DNA of 64,000 nucleotides from Bacteroidota bacterium (GTDB taxonomy: Bacteria > Bacteroidota > Bacteroidia > Chitinophagales > Chitinophagaceae), in NCBI GenBank assembly GCA_947460175.1, contig CANHGW010000007.1, forward strand, positions 15,302 to 79,301, read 5' to 3'. The stretch's first letter is position 1. Each line of letters opens with the position of its first letter. The notes under the pieces were generated by a model that saw only the letters and a list, made by a program, of their open reading frames with translations, was not told the DNA's origin and did not search any database. Shown here in pieces: positions 4,043 to 47,446 of the stretch. Position numbers and translations under genes: made by a program.

Positions 4043-4921
4043 ATGTCAGGACAATTAAAAGAAGTAAGACTTAGAATAAAATCTGTAGGTACAACTCAAC
4101 AGATAACGAAAGCTATGAAAATGGTGAGTGCTGCCAAATTGCGACGTGCACAAGATGCAATCACTCAAATGCGCCCTTATGCAGAAAAACTTCAAGAAAT
4201 GCTTAGTAACATTATTGGTAGTGTTGATGGCAATATCGGTGGCGGACTAAATGTAGAACGTCCAATTGAAAAAGTATTAATCATAGTAGTTACAAGTGAT
4301 CGTGGATTATGTGGTGCATTCAACTCTAATTCTATCAAATTGGCAAAGAATGTGATTAACGAAAAGTACAAAACACAATACGAAAAAGGAAATGTAAGTA
4401 TACTTCCTCTTGGAAAAAAAGGTTGGGAAAATTTTGTACGCAATGGCTATCCGGTGATAGACCAATTTTGGACTATTTTTAGCGACTTGAATTTTGACAA
4501 TGTAAAAGTTGCAGCTGAATATGTACGCAAAGCATTTATCAATAAAGAATTTGACAGAGTAGATTTAATATACAGCAAATTCCGCAATGCAGCTACGCAA
4601 GAATTTGTATGCGAACAGCATTTGCCAATCGCCAAATCAAAAGCACAAACTCAAAGTAACAATGACTTTATTTTTGAACCTTCAAAAGAAGTATTGATAC
4701 AAGAATTAATGCCAAAGATATTAAATACTCAAATTTTTAAAGGGATATTGGATAGCAATGCATCTGAACATGGTGCTAGAATGACTGCAATGGACAAAGC
4801 AACCGAGAATGCTGAAGAAATGCTACGCTCGCTACGTATATCATACAACAGAGCACGTCAAGCTGCAATTACAACTGAGTTGACCGAGATTGTAAGTGGT
4901 GCTGCCGCATTAGAAGGGTAA
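4043..4921 (+). CDS. atpG: F0F1 ATP synthase gamma subunit
   Basis: N-terminus LKEVRLRIKSVGTTQQITKAMKMVSAAKLRRAQ and C-terminus ITTELTEIVSGAAAL are the conserved gamma-subunit ends. Confidence 0.9.
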   Translation: MSGQLKEVRLRIKSVGTTQQITKAMKMVSAAKLRRAQDAITQMRPYAEKLQEMLSNIIGSVDGNIGGGLNVERPIEKVLIIVVTSDRGLCGAFNSNSIKLAKNVINEKYKTQYEKGNVSILPLGKKGWENFVRNGYPVIDQFWTIFSDLNFDNVKVAAEYVRKAFINKEFDRVDLIYSKFRNAATQEFVCEQHLPIAKSKAQTQSNNDFIFEPSKEVLIQELMPKILNTQIFKGILDSNASEHGARMTAMDKATENAEEMLRSLRISYNRARQAAITTELTEIVSGAAALEG

Positions 4922-40933: not shown

Positions 40934-41470
40934 CGACTGGTATTTGACTACAAAAATAAGCCATAGAACATGAAAAAGAGAGAATAAATTCAACCCAACT
41001 TACGCAATAGGCTTTGACTAAGGAAAAGAATAGTGCGTTAGTTGGGGTTACCCCGATTTAGTATTTGTTATCAGATTTTGCAAAAAGCTGATTTACAAAT
41101 AATTAATCGTTTCAGTGTTTCTAATGCTGATTCTGGGTTCAAGCCTTCTCTCTATGCCATGTTGAATGCATCAATAAAGATAGAGGAGTTCAGCTATCCC
41201 GCTCTATGTTGCCACTTCGTGCTATCCGTTGCGCACGGCGCTTCCAACTATCACGACTAGTTTTCGGCGGCATGTTCATTGTGAATCGGATCAATTGTTT
41301 ACCGAAATTTACACCCATGTAAATACTCGAGAAATTCAAAAAATCAAGAGTCCATTTGATGATTTGTAAGCTTATAATATTTATTTTTGTTTAGCTATTA
41401 ACAATTTATTATAGGCTCTTTGCTCCTTATAGTGTTCATGCATTGGGAGAAAAGTAGCTCCTATAAGTAA

Positions 41471-41480
41471 GTTAGGTGCA
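41471..41480 (+). repeat. left inverted repeat of cassette-like module 1 (GTTAGGTGCA)
   Basis: Perfect 10-bp reverse complement of TGCACCTAAC at 42065-42074. It begins with a GTTRRRY-type core. Confidence 0.6.
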
Positions 41481-41526
41481 ATGTCGCCAAAACCTCAAGA
41501 ATAGAAAATATTGAACGAAATTTGAT

Positions 41527-42057
41527 ATGAAATCAACCGAAGTTTATAAAGAAATAAACAACATAATTTTTCCAAATTTGAAATCTAATGGTTTTAAAAA
41601 GACCAAAAGCGGAATGCTTGGGTATTATAAACAACTAAAAGAACATTATTTAGTATTCTGGTTTCAATGTTCACGAGACGGATTTGACGAATTTGCTGGT
41701 TCAAAATTTATTGTAGAAATACAGATAAGCAGTTCAAACGAAATTGGAACAGCTTCAATAGTTAGACAAAGAATTCCATATTTTTTGACAAAAACAGATT
41801 TTGCAGAAATTGCGAAAACAGAAAACCAAATTAAAGACAAATTACAAAAACCACCGAAGACATATTTTATTTTTAGTTTGACAGAAGACATTCAAAATTG
41901 GAATAAGAAAAAATTTGATAAGACAAATAATTCTTACGACAAATCGAGTGACATTTGGTTTTTATATTATGACAAAACAGACATTGAAAAGTGGTTAGCG
42001 ATAATTGAACCAATGATAAACAAAATAATTTACGACTATGAACAAACAGAATACTAA
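41527..42057 (+). CDS. DUF4304-like hypothetical protein
   Basis: The N-terminal pattern (IIFPNLKSNGFKKTKSG...YLVFWFQ) resembles DUF4304 proteins. No signal peptide. Confidence 0.4.
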   Translation: MKSTEVYKEINNIIFPNLKSNGFKKTKSGMLGYYKQLKEHYLVFWFQCSRDGFDEFAGSKFIVEIQISSSNEIGTASIVRQRIPYFLTKTDFAEIAKTENQIKDKLQKPPKTYFIFSLTEDIQNWNKKKFDKTNNSYDKSSDIWFLYYDKTDIEKWLAIIEPMINKIIYDYEQTEY

Positions 42058-42064
42058 CAAACAC

Positions 42065-42312
42065 TGCACCTAACATTGGTAACTGATGCACAACTCCATT
42101 TTCAAAAACATAAAATTCCTATTATCCTTTATGGAAGATGACTGAAGAGAGTAAAATAATAATTCAGTTAGTGATGTAAGAATCTATACAACCATAAAAA
42201 ATGGCAGAACTGATAATGAAATAACTTCACATTTCTTCTCACTTCGAATGGTTTTATCTATCTTCGATTGGCGCAGTCGATTGAGTTTATTCACAGACTG
42301 TCGTTGTGCGTC
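42065..42312 (+). other. attC-like inter-module spacer 1 (contains 222-bp repeat copy A)
   Basis: Starts with TGCACCTAAC and ends with GTTGTGCGTC. GATGCACAAC (42085-42094) is 9/10 complementary to GTTGTGCGTC (42303-42312). Confidence 0.45.
42079..42300 (+). repeat. 222-bp direct repeat, copy A
   Basis: Aligns by hand with 44407-44627. The 3' 108 nt or so differ at 5 positions; the 5' half is more diverged. Confidence 0.85.
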
Positions 42313-42363
42313 ACTTTATAAAAAACTGCATAGAAAGAAAATAGTGATAAAAATTTAATTAAA

Positions 42364-42795
42364 TTGAAACCAGAAGAACTACAAAATATTATTGACAAAT
42401 TTGACGAAAACGACCTAAAACAAAAAAGTGTTTTTGGCATCTTTCAATATGGAGGGGGCTCTGAAGAGAGTTTTATAAAAGCGAATAAAGAAGGACTTGA
42501 ACTTTTTGCATTACAATTATTAAAAGCTTCAAATGAAGTAGATTTAATTCTTGCTGACAAAGAAAAAAATAATATTCTTCTTGACTATACTGAAAATTGG
42601 ATTCACCAAGACAGTCAAACTTTTTTACAATATATTGAACCTACAACCGAAAAACAAATAAACTATCCAAACGAAGAGAACAAGACAACATTCGCTGACA
42701 AAATTATGCCATACGGCTGTGGACTTATTTTAATTATTCTTGCAATTTCTACCTTTGTTGGGCTTGGAACTATAATTAAATGGATTTCAAATTAA
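42364..42795 (+). CDS. hypothetical protein with C-terminal transmembrane helix
   Basis: 143-aa ORF with a TTG start and a C-terminal hydrophobic helix (GCGLILIILAISTFVGLGTII). It is 6 bp upstream of the next ORF. Confidence 0.4.
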   Translation: MKPEELQNIIDKFDENDLKQKSVFGIFQYGGGSEESFIKANKEGLELFALQLLKASNEVDLILADKEKNNILLDYTENWIHQDSQTFLQYIEPTTEKQINYPNEENKTTFADKIMPYGCGLILIILAISTFVGLGTIIKWISN

Positions 42796-42801
42796 TAACT
42801 T

Positions 42802-43044
42802 ATGGCTACTCAAATTTGTCCAAATTGTAATAAAGATAGTTTTACTTGTTACATATTAGAAGAAGATGATAAATTTACAACTTGGCTATGTCATTCTTGT
42901 TCATTTAAAGCATTTGAAGACGAAAGTTTAGAAAGAATTTGCCTAAACTGTAAGACAAAAACTGAAATACAATTTAATGTACTAGACAAAAAATATTGGT
43001 GGTGTAACAATTGTATGAAGTACGAATTAATAAAAGAAAAATAA
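42802..43044 (+). CDS. small zinc-ribbon protein (four CxxC pairs)
   Basis: CPNC, CHSC, CLNC and CNNC pairs in 80 aa. Confidence 0.5.
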   Translation: MATQICPNCNKDSFTCYILEEDDKFTTWLCHSCSFKAFEDESLERICLNCKTKTEIQFNVLDKKYWWCNNCMKYELIKEK

Positions 43045-43053
43045 AAGCGAACT

Positions 43054-43170
43054 CACAACATCCGTTTTGCGATATTGAGGCTGATGCACAAAATTTGAAC
43101 ATTGGAATTCTATTGATCTTTTGTACTAAATTGAACATTTCCAACATCGCAAAGCCGAGAACCGTTAGGT
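43054..43170 (+). other. attC-like inter-module spacer 2 (117 bp imperfect palindrome)
   Basis: Starts with CACAAC and ends with GTTAGGT. The internal stem TTTGCGATATTG (43066-43077) pairs with CAACATCGCAAA (43142-43153) with one mismatch. It contains CTGATGCACAA at 43081-43091. Confidence 0.5.
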
Positions 43171-43207
43171 ACGACTGCTAAACCTAACTTACATAATTTA
43201 ATTATAT

Positions 43208-43228
43208 TACCAAATTTTGGTACATTTG
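43208..43228 (+). promoter_or_regulatory. candidate parDE promoter with overlapping palindromic operator
   Basis: The palindrome TACCAAA-T-TTTGGTA (43208-43222) overlaps TACATTTG (43221-43228, TAnnTTTG), 15 nt before the parD ATG. Confidence 0.5.
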
Positions 43229-43242
43229 TAAAAAGTATAAAT

Positions 43243-43494
43243 ATGGGACGCAATACATCAATCTCATTAGGCGATCATTTTGAAGACTTTATAGAACATA
43301 CCATAAATGACGGCCGATTTAATAATGCTAGCGAAGTGATTCGTGCTGGACTTCGCCTTCTGGAAGATGAAGAAAACAAAATACTAGCATTACGAAAAGC
43401 AATAGATAAAGGCTTGAAAAGTGGTCGAGCAATCGATTTTAATCCTAAAACGCATCTTGAATTTCTAAAAGCAAAGAAAAAATCAAATGGTTAA
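43243..43494 (+). CDS. parD: type II antitoxin, ParD family (ribbon-helix-helix)
   Basis: NTSISLGDHFEDFI...GRFNNASEVIRAGLRLLEDEE is the conserved ParD/COG3609 core. It overlaps the toxin gene by 8 nt. Confidence 0.85.
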   Translation: MGRNTSISLGDHFEDFIEHTINDGRFNNASEVIRAGLRLLEDEENKILALRKAIDKGLKSGRAIDFNPKTHLEFLKAKKKSNG

Positions 43495-43780
43495 ATACTA
43501 TTTTTCCAATGAAGCCGTCGAAGATTTATCTGAAATATGGAACTACACTTTTAGTACTTGGTCTGAAAAGCAAGCAGACACTTATTATAAATTAATTTTG
43601 AATTCATGCAATGAACTGGCACGAAATCCGAGCATAGGGAAAGAGTATGAAATTGTAACAAAAGGCATATTGGGATTTAGAGCTGGTGAACATATTATAT
43701 TTTATCATGTCATTTCTCAGAATGAAATTGAAGTCGCAAGAATCCTACATAGCATGATGGACTTAAAGAGTAAAATTTAA
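43487..43780 (+). CDS. parE: type II toxin, RelE/ParE family
   Basis: 97 aa with the typical ParE pattern (A.EDL.EIW.Y...W...QA..Y...I......L...P..G...) and translational coupling to parD. Confidence 0.8.
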   Translation: MVKYYFSNEAVEDLSEIWNYTFSTWSEKQADTYYKLILNSCNELARNPSIGKEYEIVTKGILGFRAGEHIIFYHVISQNEIEVARILHSMMDLKSKI

Positions 43781-43785
43781 ACCGA

Positions 43786-43920
43786 ACCTAACAGCGCAGA
43801 AAAGAAATGCCGGGCTGAGTCTAAGGGCTGAACAATTTAATCATCTAAGATCTGCGAATAAATGTTTTACTTTTTCTCTATCTTTGTCTGGCACAGCTTC
43901 TGCGGTCAGAACGTTGGCGG
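43786..43920 (+). other. attC-like inter-module spacer 3 (135 bp)
   Basis: Starts with ACCTAAC and ends with GTTGGCGG. The inner stem is CGCAGAA (43795-43801) with TTCTGCG (43898-43904). Confidence 0.5.
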
Positions 43921-43957
43921 AAAGGCAAGAACCGATACGATATCTAATGTAGATTTG

Positions 43958-44410
43958 ATGAATTTAAAAAATAAGTTGGATGAATATCTGATAAATGGGT
44001 TAGACAGGAATAATATCTTGATATACAAAATTGATATTCAGAAGGATGAATGCTCTAGATATGTATTCACTATAAGATTTCAAATTCCGATTCCAAAACC
44101 TTTTCCATTATCAAGAACTATTCTCTTTGATGTAACGAATGAGAAATATAAAAGGAAAGATATTGTAACAAACATATACATCTTCATCGCGAATATCATA
44201 ATGTCAATAATAGTAAGTTGTGATATTTTATGCAATTTAGATGAAATACAATCTGAATTTAGGATAATACAAATAATAGCAATATTATTAACTCCATTGG
44301 TTATGACAATATTTCCTTACTTGATAATTAGAAAATATATGTCTAGAATAACTCTCGGATACGAAGATAAAGAAATGATAAATGATCATCCCTACCGCCA
44401 ACAGCAGTAA
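43958..44410 (+). CDS. small hypothetical membrane protein
   Basis: The ATG at 43958 lies downstream of the GTTGGCGG boundary. Two hydrophobic helices. The stop overlaps the CCGCCAAC site. Confidence 0.4.
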   Translation: MNLKNKLDEYLINGLDRNNILIYKIDIQKDECSRYVFTIRFQIPIPKPFPLSRTILFDVTNEKYKRKDIVTNIYIFIANIIMSIIVSCDILCNLDEIQSEFRIIQIIAILLTPLVMTIFPYLIIRKYMSRITLGYEDKEMINDHPYRQQQ

Positions 44411-44627
44411 CTGATACACAACTACTATTTAAAAATCAAGAATATCCTATTATCGTATATGGAAGATGACAGAATAGAGAAAAATAAAAATTCAATTAGT
44501 GATGCGAGTATGTATAGAACATAAAAAATGGCAGAACTGATATTGAAAAAACTTCACATTTCTTCTCACTTCGAATGGTTTTATCTATCTTCGATTGACG
44601 CAGTCGACTGAGTTTTTTCACAGACTG
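44407..44627 (+). repeat. 222-bp direct repeat, copy B
   Basis: Aligns with 42079-42300. Unlike copy A it is not followed by a GTTGTGC core. It ends 54 bp before the ATPase start. Confidence 0.85.
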
Positions 44628-44680
44628 CCTTTAGTAGCTAGTATAAGTGTCATCACAGCATAAATCAGACAATCATTTAA

Positions 44681-47170
44681 ATGATAAACGGACTAACAAG
44701 TATTCAAGCAGCAGAAAAAATAAAACTTGAAGGTTACAATGAATTAGCATCTGCTAAACCAAAGAACATACTAAGCATTGCGTTGGAGGTAATAAAAGAA
44801 CCTATGTTTCTTTTATTAATAAGTTGTGGAATTCTTTACATGATTCTGGGAGATTACAAGGAAGGCATCATTTTACTATCAGCGATCTTCATCATCATCT
44901 TCATTACCTTTTATCAATATCAAAAAACAGAAAAAGCCTTAGAGGCACTCAAAAAACTTTCTTCGCCTCGGGCATTGGTTATTCGTGATGGAAAAGAAAT
45001 AAGAATACCTGGCAGAGAAGTGGTAACAGATGACATTATTATAATAAACGAAGGCGACCGCATACCCGCTGACGCTGTTCTACTTGACAGCTTGAACATA
45101 TCCGTTGATGAATCATTGCTTACGGGCGAATCAGTTCCAGTGGTAAAAAATGTTCAGTTAGATGAAGCGAATACCCAAGTAATGCTTTTCAGCGGCACAC
45201 TTGTGGTTCAGGGAAAAGGAATAGCGAAGGTTTTAAGCACTGGAACTAAAACACAATTTGGCAAAATAGGAATATCGTTGCAAAGCATTGAACAGGATGA
45301 AACCCGATTGCAAAAGGAAATGAAAGTTCTTATTCGTAATCTCTTTATTGCCGGTGCTATTATCAGCATAGGTGTTGTGGCGGCATTTTATTTTACACGA
45401 GGAAATTTAATACAATCAGTGCTCAATGGACTAGCAGCTGCCATGGCCATTTTACCTGAAGAATTTCCAGTAGTGCTTACTGTATTTCTTGCGTTGGGAG
45501 CATGGCGTTTATCCAAGAAAAATGTATTGACCCGAAAGCCATCAGCTATTGAAACGCTGGGTTCTGCGACTGTTTTGTGCAGCGATAAAACAGGCACGAT
45601 TACACTAAACAAAATGGAAGTAGTTGCTTTGTGTGACGACAATAAAATCTATCATAAAAGTGACTTCAAAGATAATAAAGAACTTCTTCAGGATTTAATT
45701 ACGTCTGCATTTCGTGCCTCGCAAAATGATTCAATTGACCCTATGGAAAAAGCTATTGTAAATGCATATCGAGAAATAGTAACAGAAAAAAATCAATCAG
45801 AAAAATTAATAAAGGAGTATCCATTAAGCAAACAACTCTTTGCCATGACAAGAGTGTTGGAGGGCGCATCTCATGAATCCTTTTCTGTATTTAGTAAAGG
45901 GGCGCCAGAAGCCATTTTTGCTTTATGCAAAATGAACGAGCAGGAAATTGCACCGCAAATTGCTTCTGTAAATCAAATGGCAGAAAAAGGCTATCGGGTT
46001 ATTGCCGTTGCAATAACATCATGGAATCAGCAAACATTACCAGAAACTCAATACGATTTTGATTTTAAATTTCTCGGACTCATCGGCTTTGAAGACCCTA
46101 TACGACCCGAAGTTCCTCAAGCTATCAAGGAATGTAATGAAGCAGGAATAAAAGTAATTATGATTACCGGAGATTTCCCCGCAACTGCAACCAGTATCGC
46201 CTCACAAATCGGGCTTCAATCTGCTGAAAATGTATTAACGGGAAATGATTTAAAAAAATTGAATGATGCGCAACTACAGGAAAAAATTAAAACAGTGAAT
46301 GTTTTTGCACGAATTATTCCTGAGCAAAAACTCCAAATCATAAAAGCATTAAAAGCAAATGGTGAAATCGTAGCCATGACGGGAGATGGCGTAAATGATG
46401 CACCTGCATTAAAAGCTGCTGACATTGGAGTGGCTATGGGTGGTAAAGGTACCGATGTAGCAAGAGAGGCATCTTCCTTGGTTTTGCTTGATGACAACTT
46501 CGCTTCCATTGTTTCAGCTATTCGCTCAGGAAGAAAAATATACGATAACCTGCAAAAAGCAATGTCATATATTCTTGCTATTCATATACCGATAATTGGA
46601 CTTGCGCTATTGCCTGCGTTTTTCACTTCGCTACCATTACTATTAATGCCATTGCACATTGTTTTTATGGAACTAATTATTGATCCTGTTTGCTCTGTTG
46701 CTTTTGAATCGGAACAAGAAGAAAAAGGAATAATGCAACGTCCACCTCGAAACCCCAATGAATTATTTTTTGGTTGGCACAAAATGGTATTCAGTTTAAT
46801 TCAAGGATTATTGCTATTGATAATGGTACTAGTCGTTTATTTTTTATCCATTCACGAAGGACATAACGAGCGTGAAGTTAGAGCAATTGCCTTTTCCTCA
46901 CTTATAATCGGTAATATATTCCTTATTCTTACATCACTTTCAAAAACCAGAAATTTCATTTCAATATTGATGGAAAAAAATATTGCAGTAATTCTTATTA
47001 TTGCAATCGCATTGACGCTATTGTTTGTGATAATATCTGTTCCTGCACTACAACAAATTTTCAGTTTTCAATTTCCTGGGTACAACCATTTTATTTCTTC
47101 GATAACTGGTGCTGCTATCATTTTACTGATATTTGAATCATATAAATTTATCAAGACAAAATGGAGATAA
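44681..47170 (+). CDS. cation-translocating P-type ATPase (type II, Ca2+/Mg2+-like)
   Basis: Phosphorylation site DKTGTIT, TGES actuator motif, hinge GDGVNDAPALKAADIGVAMG and about 10 TM helices. Confidence 0.9.
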   Translation: MINGLTSIQAAEKIKLEGYNELASAKPKNILSIALEVIKEPMFLLLISCGILYMILGDYKEGIILLSAIFIIIFITFYQYQKTEKALEALKKLSSPRALVIRDGKEIRIPGREVVTDDIIIINEGDRIPADAVLLDSLNISVDESLLTGESVPVVKNVQLDEANTQVMLFSGTLVVQGKGIAKVLSTGTKTQFGKIGISLQSIEQDETRLQKEMKVLIRNLFIAGAIISIGVVAAFYFTRGNLIQSVLNGLAAAMAILPEEFPVVLTVFLALGAWRLSKKNVLTRKPSAIETLGSATVLCSDKTGTITLNKMEVVALCDDNKIYHKSDFKDNKELLQDLITSAFRASQNDSIDPMEKAIVNAYREIVTEKNQSEKLIKEYPLSKQLFAMTRVLEGASHESFSVFSKGAPEAIFALCKMNEQEIAPQIASVNQMAEKGYRVIAVAITSWNQQTLPETQYDFDFKFLGLIGFEDPIRPEVPQAIKECNEAGIKVIMITGDFPATATSIASQIGLQSAENVLTGNDLKKLNDAQLQEKIKTVNVFARIIPEQKLQIIKALKANGEIVAMTGDGVNDAPALKAADIGVAMGGKGTDVAREASSLVLLDDNFASIVSAIRSGRKIYDNLQKAMSYILAIHIPIIGLALLPAFFTSLPLLLMPLHIVFMELIIDPVCSVAFESEQEEKGIMQRPPRNPNELFFGWHKMVFSLIQGLLLLIMVLVVYFLSIHEGHNEREVRAIAFSSLIIGNIFLILTSLSKTRNFISILMEKNIAVILIIAIALTLLFVIISVPALQQIFSFQFPGYNHFISSITGAAIILLIFESYKFIKTKWR

Positions 47171-47446
47171 ATATGAGTTGCATCAGTTTTCTACTTTTAT
47201 CAATAACAAATAAGCCATTACATAAAAATACATTTTCAATAGGCAAGATTTTGTGATCAGCAGACAGTTTTGTGGTAACCGTAAGTTCAGTTTTCGGCAT
47301 CTGTATTTATGGTCAAAAACCCGCTCATATTAATTCTGAAAAGTCTTGGTTTGAAAAAAATAAATTTTTGAATTTCATTTCAATAAACAAATTATTTGTA
47401 GAAGTTAACTAGTTTTCATTAGAAGTTAACTAAGTGACTAAATTTT

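Follow-up and report, generated by a model that had tools for sequence, protein, structure and literature searches.

A 222-bp repeat in a Chitinophagaceae cassette array, probably formed from the fused ends of two IS1182-family insertion sequences

The window analysed here, a 64,000-nucleotide stretch of the genome of a Bacteroidota bacterium of the family Chitinophagaceae (assembly GCA_947460175.1, contig CANHGW010000007.1, positions 15,302 to 79,301), carries two direct copies of a 222-bp repeat, and raises the question of what such a repeat is: a recombination site, a regulatory leader, a tiny gene or the remains of a mobile element. The source genome (G000 below) comprises 3.1 Mb in 108 contigs, the window lying on contig C7. 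We consider it likely that the repeat is a unit of fused IS1182-family insertion sequence (IS) ends, lodged in the cassette junctions of an integron-like array.

The two copies, copy A at 42079-42300 and copy B at 44407-44627, showed 87.4% identity over 222 nt (E 1e-73). Their local alignment fell in two blocks, one of 129 nt at 78% and one of 113 nt at 94% identity; measured by halves, the 5' ~122 nt were 81% and the 3' ~100 nt 95% identical (5 differences). This agrees with an initial annotation of the window, made from the sequence alone, which had described two diverged copies 2.3 kb apart, with a more diverged 5' half and about five differences in the 3' ~108 nt. The internal direct repeat that it had pointed out was located in both copies, as TTCGAATG (42243-42250) and TTCGATTG (42263-42270) in copy A and at 44570-44577 and 44590-44597 in copy B. 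The distances that it had given to the next start codons (54-64 bp) correspond to the 63 nt between copy A and a TTG at 42364, and to the 53 nt between copy B and the ATG of an ATPase gene at 44681.

A third full unit was found in the source genome at C3:122415-122629. Bases 1-114 of the unit also occur at C103:2100-2214, and its 3' 58 nt at about 13 loci of the same genome. The prospect that only two copies exist, which the initial annotation had named as pointing to a simple local duplication, is therefore contradicted, and its own view that the repeat is not a recent local duplication is supported, as is the greater conservation of the 3' half across copies. Among 35 genomes of the genus, full units were present only in the source genome (three) and in the sister genome G121 (three), while the two halves occurred apart from each other in five further genomes. 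Each of the six dispersed copies lies behind a different gene, and the internal junction between the halves is identical in all six.

There is little doubt, to judge by the sequence comparisons, that the 222-bp unit is non-coding and non-autonomous and that it consists of the fused ends of two IS1182-family elements, the left end of one (IS-B) and the right end of another (IS-A), on the minus strand. Read on the reverse strand, unit bases 1-114 were 87% identical to C103:2100-2214, a segment that overlaps the 3' end of a 528-amino-acid transposase open reading frame (ORF), and the alignment extends to about unit base 142, past the transposase stop codon. The C103 transposase scored 340 bits on the IS1182 model NF033551 (cut-off 270) and contains DDE_Tnp_1_6 and DUF772 domains. 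It belongs to an intact copy of IS-A, C103:457-2214 (1758 bp), with the terminal repeats GTGTGCGTGTTGCACAACT and GGAGTTGTGCATCAGTTAC and a CCC/CCC target duplication; this copy sits within a palindromic site, between a CGCTAACA box and the inner arm. The last codons of the transposase can be recognised in decayed form in the unit, as FLWLYRFLHH and stop in another frame of copy A and FFMFYTYSHH and stop in copy B, the intact version being …MLYRFSHH and stop. An early idea, that the unit joins the left and right ends of one and the same IS, was ruled out, as IS-A has its own left end at C103:457.

The other half leads to a second lineage. The 58-nt 3' block is found, in reverse orientation, ~85 nt upstream of the N-termini of IS-B transposases (MKYQQGIPREQL…; MKYQQGIPREQLQMLSFDSMISPENPVR and variants). 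The combination of block and transposase start was seen at C103:3232 (at the contig end), C15:2245, C3, three sites of the sister-genus genome G002 and L199, a contig of a metagenome-assembled genome (MAG). An intact IS-B, with a transposase of 514 amino acids, is present in G002. The region G002:C2:8000-27000 holds three IS-B copies in the same orientation within 9 kb, each in another hairpin site; one is intact and two have a broken transposase. When 16 copies were aligned, the invariant parts were a pair of TTCGATTG direct repeats lying 13 nt apart and a terminal GTTTTTTCACAGACTG, and the intervening stretch was free to vary, as is typical of IS-end DNA that is bound by protein. The two subterminal TTCGATTG repeats are presumably transposase-binding sites.

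By sequence, then, the first ~125 bp of the unit are assigned to the IS-A right end with the last transposase codons, and the last ~90 bp to the IS-B left end. In copy A, the IS-A part spans 42079-42203 (minus strand), with the terminal repeat GTAACTGATGCACAACTCC at 42079-42097 and a transposase remnant of ~11 codons at ~42168-42203, and the IS-B part spans 42204-42300 (minus strand), with the two subterminal repeats located above and the terminal repeat GAGTTTATTCACAGACTG at 42283-42300. In copy B (minus strand), the corresponding features are the IS-A end at 44407-44425, the transposase remnant at ~44496-44531 and the IS-B end at 44610-44627, with CCTTTAGTAGC, a degenerate start box, directly behind it at 44628-44638. 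The coding content of the unit is limited to the transposase C-terminal remnant, and the small ORF discussed below is not conserved. The unit may be a chimera of the two lineages or the descendant of an unsampled hybrid parent.

What surrounds the unit is equally regular. On its left stands …C(T/C)AACA plus 3 nt, and on its right 2 nt plus GTTRGC, sometimes in degenerate form. The partners of these flanking boxes are the far ends of the adjacent gene modules; the boxes do not pair with each other. We hold with considerable confidence that the cassettes of an integron-like array are bounded by the CTAACA and GTTRGC boxes and that the unit sits at a cassette junction. Four modules with matched ends were delimited on the plus strand of the window. 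Cassette 1 (41471-42074; ORF 41527-42057) begins with GTTAGGTGCA (41471) and ends with TGCACCTAAC (42074), matching at 10/10 positions, and cassette 2 (42303-43059; ORFs 42364-42795 and 42802-43044) begins with GTTGTGCGTC (42303) and ends with AACTCACAAC (43059; 8/10). Cassette 3 (43164-43792) encodes a parDE toxin-antitoxin pair (Pfam ParD, 1.6e-25; ParE, 1.3e-17) between GTTAGGTACG (43164) and CGAACCTAAC (43792; 9/10), and cassette 4 (43913-44402; ORF ~43958-44410) lies between GTTGGCGGAA (43913) and TACCGCCAAC (44402; 9/10). A cassette on C103 has ends matched at 14/15 positions. Recombination at G|TT of a hairpin site gives rise to just such ends, matched, specific to each cassette, and with GTT at the start and AAC at the end. 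Another idea, that the CTAACA and GTTRGC boxes are IS termini, was ruled out, since the 2-3 nt spacers vary and the boxes match the far cassette ends. A genome-wide search for GTT…AAC pairs was uninformative as sole evidence (4251 pairs, against 10289 in a reversed control), and is useless alone because of the high background in AT-rich DNA.

Between the cassettes of the window lie two sites free of any IS. The site at 43050-43175 (plus strand; CACAACA … agaacc|GTTAGGT) forms 12 end-to-end pairs in the DNA fold, and a second, degenerate site at 43783-43922 (plus strand; CCTAACA … agaac|GTTGGCG) is 78% identical to a site of G121. Upstream of cassette 1, the C-terminal remnant of a tyrosine recombinase (…FTEIYTHVNTREIQKIKSPFDDL and stop; 41262-41370, plus strand) was recognised by tblastn, at 64% identity to residues 324-345 of the product of C47:334-1371. 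It is followed by an attI-like junction, TATAAGTAA directly abutting GTTAGGTGCAATG (41462-41483, plus strand), identified by recurrence of the motif and by a break of synteny with G121 at 41474.

The product of C47:334-1371 is an intact recombinase of 345 amino acids. On NF040815, the model named 'site-specific tyrosine recombinase/integron integrase' (cut-off 220), it reached 224 bits; on TIGR02249, the model of classical IntI (cut-off 265), it reached 206 bits, with no insertion between model positions 177 and 238. Its best relatives of solved structure were XerA, a XerC-like protein and IntI4. No classical IntI above the cut-off was found in the source genome. A search of 81 family genomes at E ≤ 1e-40 was negative as well, but the controls also gave none, so that absence is not proven. 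In more than 20 Bacteroidota MAGs, a palindrome followed by TATAA-NNN-A|GTT(A/G)nnG(G/T)nAAT occurs 110-130 nt downstream of intact homologues of the recombinase. The recombinase and its TATAA-NNN-A|GTT junction have the appearance of an integron-like platform in which a classical IntI is missing. The remnant and junction in the window support an array driven by a recombinase, as do the different cassettes of the sister genome and the hairpin form of the IS-free sites, both described below. The contigs mostly end soon after this recombinase-linked junction.

Comparison with the sister genome delimits the variable part of the array. The flanking genes are 92-99% identical between G121 and the window. 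Synteny runs from a lutB-like gene to 41474, at G|TT, and resumes at 44452, inside copy B, at 94% from there onward; copy B is the orthologue of the last unit in the G121 array. Between these two points G121 carries different cassettes, with the matched ends GTTATAGGCA/TGCCTATAAC and GTTAGTGGC/GCCACTAAC. The G121 cassettes were absent from the source genome except for one diverged homologue that is not a cassette, and neither the ORF of cassette 1 nor that of cassette 4 was present in any of the 34 other genomes of the genus. Synteny with G121 is also lost at the C3 locus, at an N|TTAACC junction.

Across Bacteroidota, members of both parental IS lineages are inserted specifically at the two feet of hairpin sites. 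For relatives of IS-A, 34 distinct right-end junctions were collected from many genera (Marinifilum, Maribacter, Cloacibacterium and several MAGs). They read NNN-TGTT(A/G)(G/T)(C), with T, G, T and T at positions +4 to +7 in 31, 33, 33 and 34 junctions, respectively, and in 13 of 23 pairs of ends the three bases NNN recurred as a duplication at the left end. The sequence TGTTAG at these junctions is the reverse complement of the cassette-end box CTAACA. A palindrome partner was present on the other side of IS-A at 13 of the 34 junctions, against ~1 expected, in a recurring geometry with the partner ~95-110 nt away and AAC..GTTT at about -120. The junctions of IS-B relatives, which include ~18 copies in one Maribacter genome besides others, were tabulated by pattern anchoring, automatic detection of terminal repeats being too noisy. 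AAC preceded the end in 29 junctions (21/29 at each position), and in 25 further junctions CGT was followed by T in all 25 and then by (G/A)(G/T)C..CAAT, giving the consensus TGGCAACAAT. This indicates insertion into AAC|CGT|TRGC, between the hairpin spacer and the cassette-start box. Beside each of the three IS-B copies in G002 the hairpin body is intact, with IS-B between the body and GTT.

The position of the unit invites the reading, offered by the initial annotation, that it is itself an unusually long attC site. As far as position goes this holds, the unit lying 3' of a cassette ORF between a cassette-end and a cassette-start box (CCTAACA…GTTGTGC around copy A, GCCAACA…(T)TTAGT around copy B), as an attC site would. 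Its nature is different. In DNA folds, end-to-end pairs numbered 10-11 in copy A and 7-8 in the C3 copy, and none formed in copy B or in the middle unit of the G121 array (G121-mid). IS-free sites of the same arrays gave 12-22 end pairs; the G121 site gave 15-22, and its degenerate relative in the window, 43783-43922, gave none. Once the IS had been deleted in silico, the C103 site and three sites of G002 formed 10-21 end pairs on at least one strand; the G002 sites without IS-B gave 12-21, with minimum free energies of -20 to -29 kcal/mol against -12 to -16 for shuffled sequences. The unit is therefore not an attC hairpin itself, since two of four copies lack end pairing, IS-free sites form 12-22 pairs and the sequence is that of IS ends. 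The initial annotation had also proposed that copy A is closed by GATGCACAAC…GTTGTGCGTC. Both sequences are present (42085-42094 and 42303-42312) and do pair in the folded DNA, but in copy A only, and the pairing is one between the core of the IS-A terminal repeat and the first bases of cassette 2, not the closure of an attC site.

How did the unit reach six places? In the copies inspected there is no target duplication and the hairpin body of the site is gone, a combination that ordinary insertion cannot yield. IS1272, a member of the IS1182 family, has been reported to replace target stem-loops of 21-85 bp without duplication, and in the model for this element alternative pathways duplicate the loop or the whole stem (PMC5678879). 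Since this mode reproduces the signature of the unit, we take it as the most likely route. The unit would then be a miniature inverted-repeat transposable element (MITE) that is moved by a transposase acting in trans and takes the place of the hairpin between the feet of the site. Such a replacement would remove the target hairpin and leave no target duplication; loss of the hairpin would disable the recombination site and tend to freeze the junction, and the 3' half would be kept conserved because it carries the transposase-binding sites. By analogy with IS1272, we give this mechanism about an even chance for the unit. The ends of orthologous arrays differ in a way that may reflect another replacement event: in G121 (C8, L236 at 4500-4580) a 41-nt tip of the IS-A right end follows the last …ACA box, and in its G000 counterpart (C1, L012 at 240-500) ~95 nt of unrelated sequence follows …CACATAACA.

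Several results weigh against a mobile unit of this kind. Its two ends match each other at only ~11-13 of 20 positions, with gaps. A scan for a parent IS carrying both ends gave seven stretches, none of full length, so recognition of both ends by a single transposase is not demonstrated, and no intact IS-B transposase gene is assembled in the source genome. The full-length copies of IS-A and IS-B are inserted beside the hairpin and do not replace it. No occupied/empty pair was found for the unit, the upstream cassette genes being absent from the 34 other genomes of the genus, and scans of metagenomes gave no hits for the end of cassette 1 and, for the unit junction, 29 chance hits and no real copy. 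One G121 unit (on contig C83) has apparently been duplicated together with its downstream gene, and homology with G121 resumes inside copy B; the two observations together suggest that at least some of the spread occurred by recombination. The missing target duplication lowers confidence in mobility but leaves the claim standing, as it is expected under stem-loop replacement.

The main rival to hairpin replacement follows from these points. IS-A and IS-B may have inserted at the two feet of one hairpin site, after which a single deletion removed both transposase genes together with the hairpin, leaving a passive scar; the fused remnant would then have been distributed within the arrays by recombination, homologous or site-specific, and by block duplication alone, not by transposition. 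This would account for the identical internal junction in all six copies, and fits with the break of homology within copy B, with the failure of full-length IS-A and IS-B to replace hairpins and with the C83 unit of G121, whose paralogue, downstream gene included, is the array unit of G121 with cassette 3. The left-end copies, at least 13 in number, could have served as recombination substrates. We nevertheless regard both the origin by deletion and the spread by recombination only as unlikely, because a different cassette stands upstream of each of the six copies, and the matched end box of that cassette lies immediately against the unit, whereas by integron logic the body of a site stays linked to its upstream cassette; moreover, the 5' halves are only 59-81% identical and would be poor substrates for homologous recombination. 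Still less probable is that the unit is a functional, unusually long attC used by the recombinase of the array, in which IS terminal repeats have replaced the inner hairpin arms. It does lie exactly at the position of a site, between …AAC and GTT… boxes, copies A and C3 are able to pair their ends (7-11 pairs), and the cassettes on either side differ between the sister genomes. However, in addition to the two copies without end pairing, four of six units are followed by a degenerate start box (TTTAGT after copy B, CTTAGC after C3, GAAGGT after G121-mid and AATAAT after the C83 unit of G121), copy B holds a fixed place at the end of the array, as does its orthologue in G121, and the unit measures 222-248 nt, compared with ~60-140 nt for IS-free sites.

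Two further proposals of the initial annotation concern expression, and neither is supported. A shared leader, promoter or small RNA controlling the plus-strand genes at 42364 and 44681 would suit the placement of the window copies 53-63 nt upstream of start codons and the conservation of the 3' half, and IS ends sometimes carry outward promoters. However, Rfam gave no match in the unit at the gathering threshold or at E ≤ 1, only two tRNAs being found elsewhere in the window. RNA folding of the conserved half on both strands yielded z-scores of +0.4 to -0.9, with copies A and B folding differently, and RNAalifold on 16 copies returned 7 pairs, 0 of them compensatory, at -2.4 kcal/mol. The Bacteroidota -7 box (TAnnTTTG) was absent from both strands of the unit, and other copies precede unrelated genes or no gene. 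A regulatory role of this kind is thus very improbable. A tiny basic protein of 36-41 amino acids on the minus strand is less credible again. The two frames (42184-42294 and 44496-44621) do exist and are open from a GTG in both window copies, but across 12 copies the frame varies from 8 to 41 codons, 4 of the 12 have no GTG and two 1-nt indels occur in one copy; its C-terminal residues, the …YSHH tail before the stop, are the transposase C-terminus, as a remnant in a shifted context.

Among known systems, the closest mechanistic precedent for the fused IS-end unit is IS1272, and the closest ecological ones the IS1111-attC ISs and the group IIC-attC introns. IS1272 belongs to the same transposase family (NF033551), has inverted-repeat or hairpin targets, and makes no target duplication while the hairpin is lost (PMC5678879); related pathways give short or long duplications, and the full-length IS-A has one of 3 bp. 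Unlike the arbitrary hairpins used by IS1272, the targets here share …AAC and GTTRGC boxes in cassette arrays, and the element is a 222-bp non-autonomous one, with ends from two lineages and presumably placed by replacement. IS1111-attC insertion sequences invade integron cassette recombination sites at a fixed position and in a fixed orientation, by means of DEDD transposases guided by a seekRNA and without classical terminal repeats (PMC11187229). The parents of the unit resemble them in function only, being DDE elements of the IS1182 family (DDE_Tnp_1, DUF772, NF033551) with terminal inverted repeats, in arrays without a classical IntI. Group IIC-attC introns are likewise mobile elements specialised on attC sites, but as retroelements they have a ribozyme structure and a reverse transcriptase, and the unit contains neither (PMC3001079). 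The unit resembles MITEs in being short, non-coding and multi-copy, with IS ends that may form imperfect terminal inverted repeats; it differs from them in lacking a target duplication, in combining the ends of two IS lineages and in having all its copies in one kind of structured site. With integron attC sites, such as the Vibrio cholerae repeats (VCRs), it shares the place after a cassette ORF, the RYYYAAC-like and GTTRRRY-like boxes and the occurrence of one sequence type with unrelated cassettes of one species. In contrast to them it has no conserved hairpin, is 222-248 nt long and IS-derived, and occurs where no classical integrase was found (the source genome and 81 family genomes).

Taken alone, the repeat is an inert-looking transposon relic; its interest is that it marks the homing of DDE elements of the IS1182 family to hairpin-site boxes in Bacteroidota arrays. 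A published survey found classical integrons to be nearly absent from Bacteroidetes (PMC9024848), and a literature search on IS1182 and attC returned no paper describing such targeting. What is novel in the unit is the lodging of a two-lineage IS relic or MITE in the hairpin sites of a non-classical array, where hairpin replacement probably placed it. More tentatively, and with somewhat less than an even chance of being right, we propose that two IS1182 lineages, whose range extends from Chitinophagaceae to Maribacter and Marinifilum, live as parasites specialised on hairpin sites, those of a hitherto undescribed integron-like system of Bacteroidota (NF040815/XerA-like recombinase, TATAA-NNN-A|GTT junction, GTT…/…AAC cassettes), and that the unit is their hairpin-replacing MITE, which switches junctions off. 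If replacement is true, such elements would erase recombination hairpins, freeze cassettes and shape the evolution of arrays. In practice, relics of IS ends can be taken for regulatory repeats or long attC sites, and at the borders of arrays they interrupt short-read assemblies.

Some further features of the array and its surroundings were recorded. The ATPase gene that starts at 44681 may lie inside a variable segment of the array. Five bases past its stop codon, at 47175-47188, stands GAGTTGCATCAGTT, a terminal repeat of the IS-A type, and a stretch similar to the body of the hairpin site at C103:380-440 follows ~100 nt beyond, at about 47270-47310. A 60-nt hairpin unit, …TTAACC CTCTCCGAAGCC ttt GGCTTCGTGAGG … GTTGGC, recurs ~12 times in the source genome (C30:2439-2496, C1:26364-26421, C19:42617-42674, C3:122308-122365 and about 8 more loci) and is often directly followed by GCCAAC and a relic of the IS-B left end; it looks like a family of short attC-type sites. 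The leader before cassette 1 contains a dispersed repeat at 41203-41297 (~10 copies) and another at 41305-41383 (one copy, 87% identical, on C34); some of these copies adjoin IS-A fragments (C79) or the 60-nt hairpin unit (C19). Further upstream, at 40994-41137, lies a 144-bp MITE, CCCAACTTACGC…GCTGATTCTGGG, flanked by a 5-bp duplication, TTCAA (40989-40993 and 41138-41142). More than 15 copies of it occur in the source genome, and it is precisely absent from G121, which provides a clean empty site.

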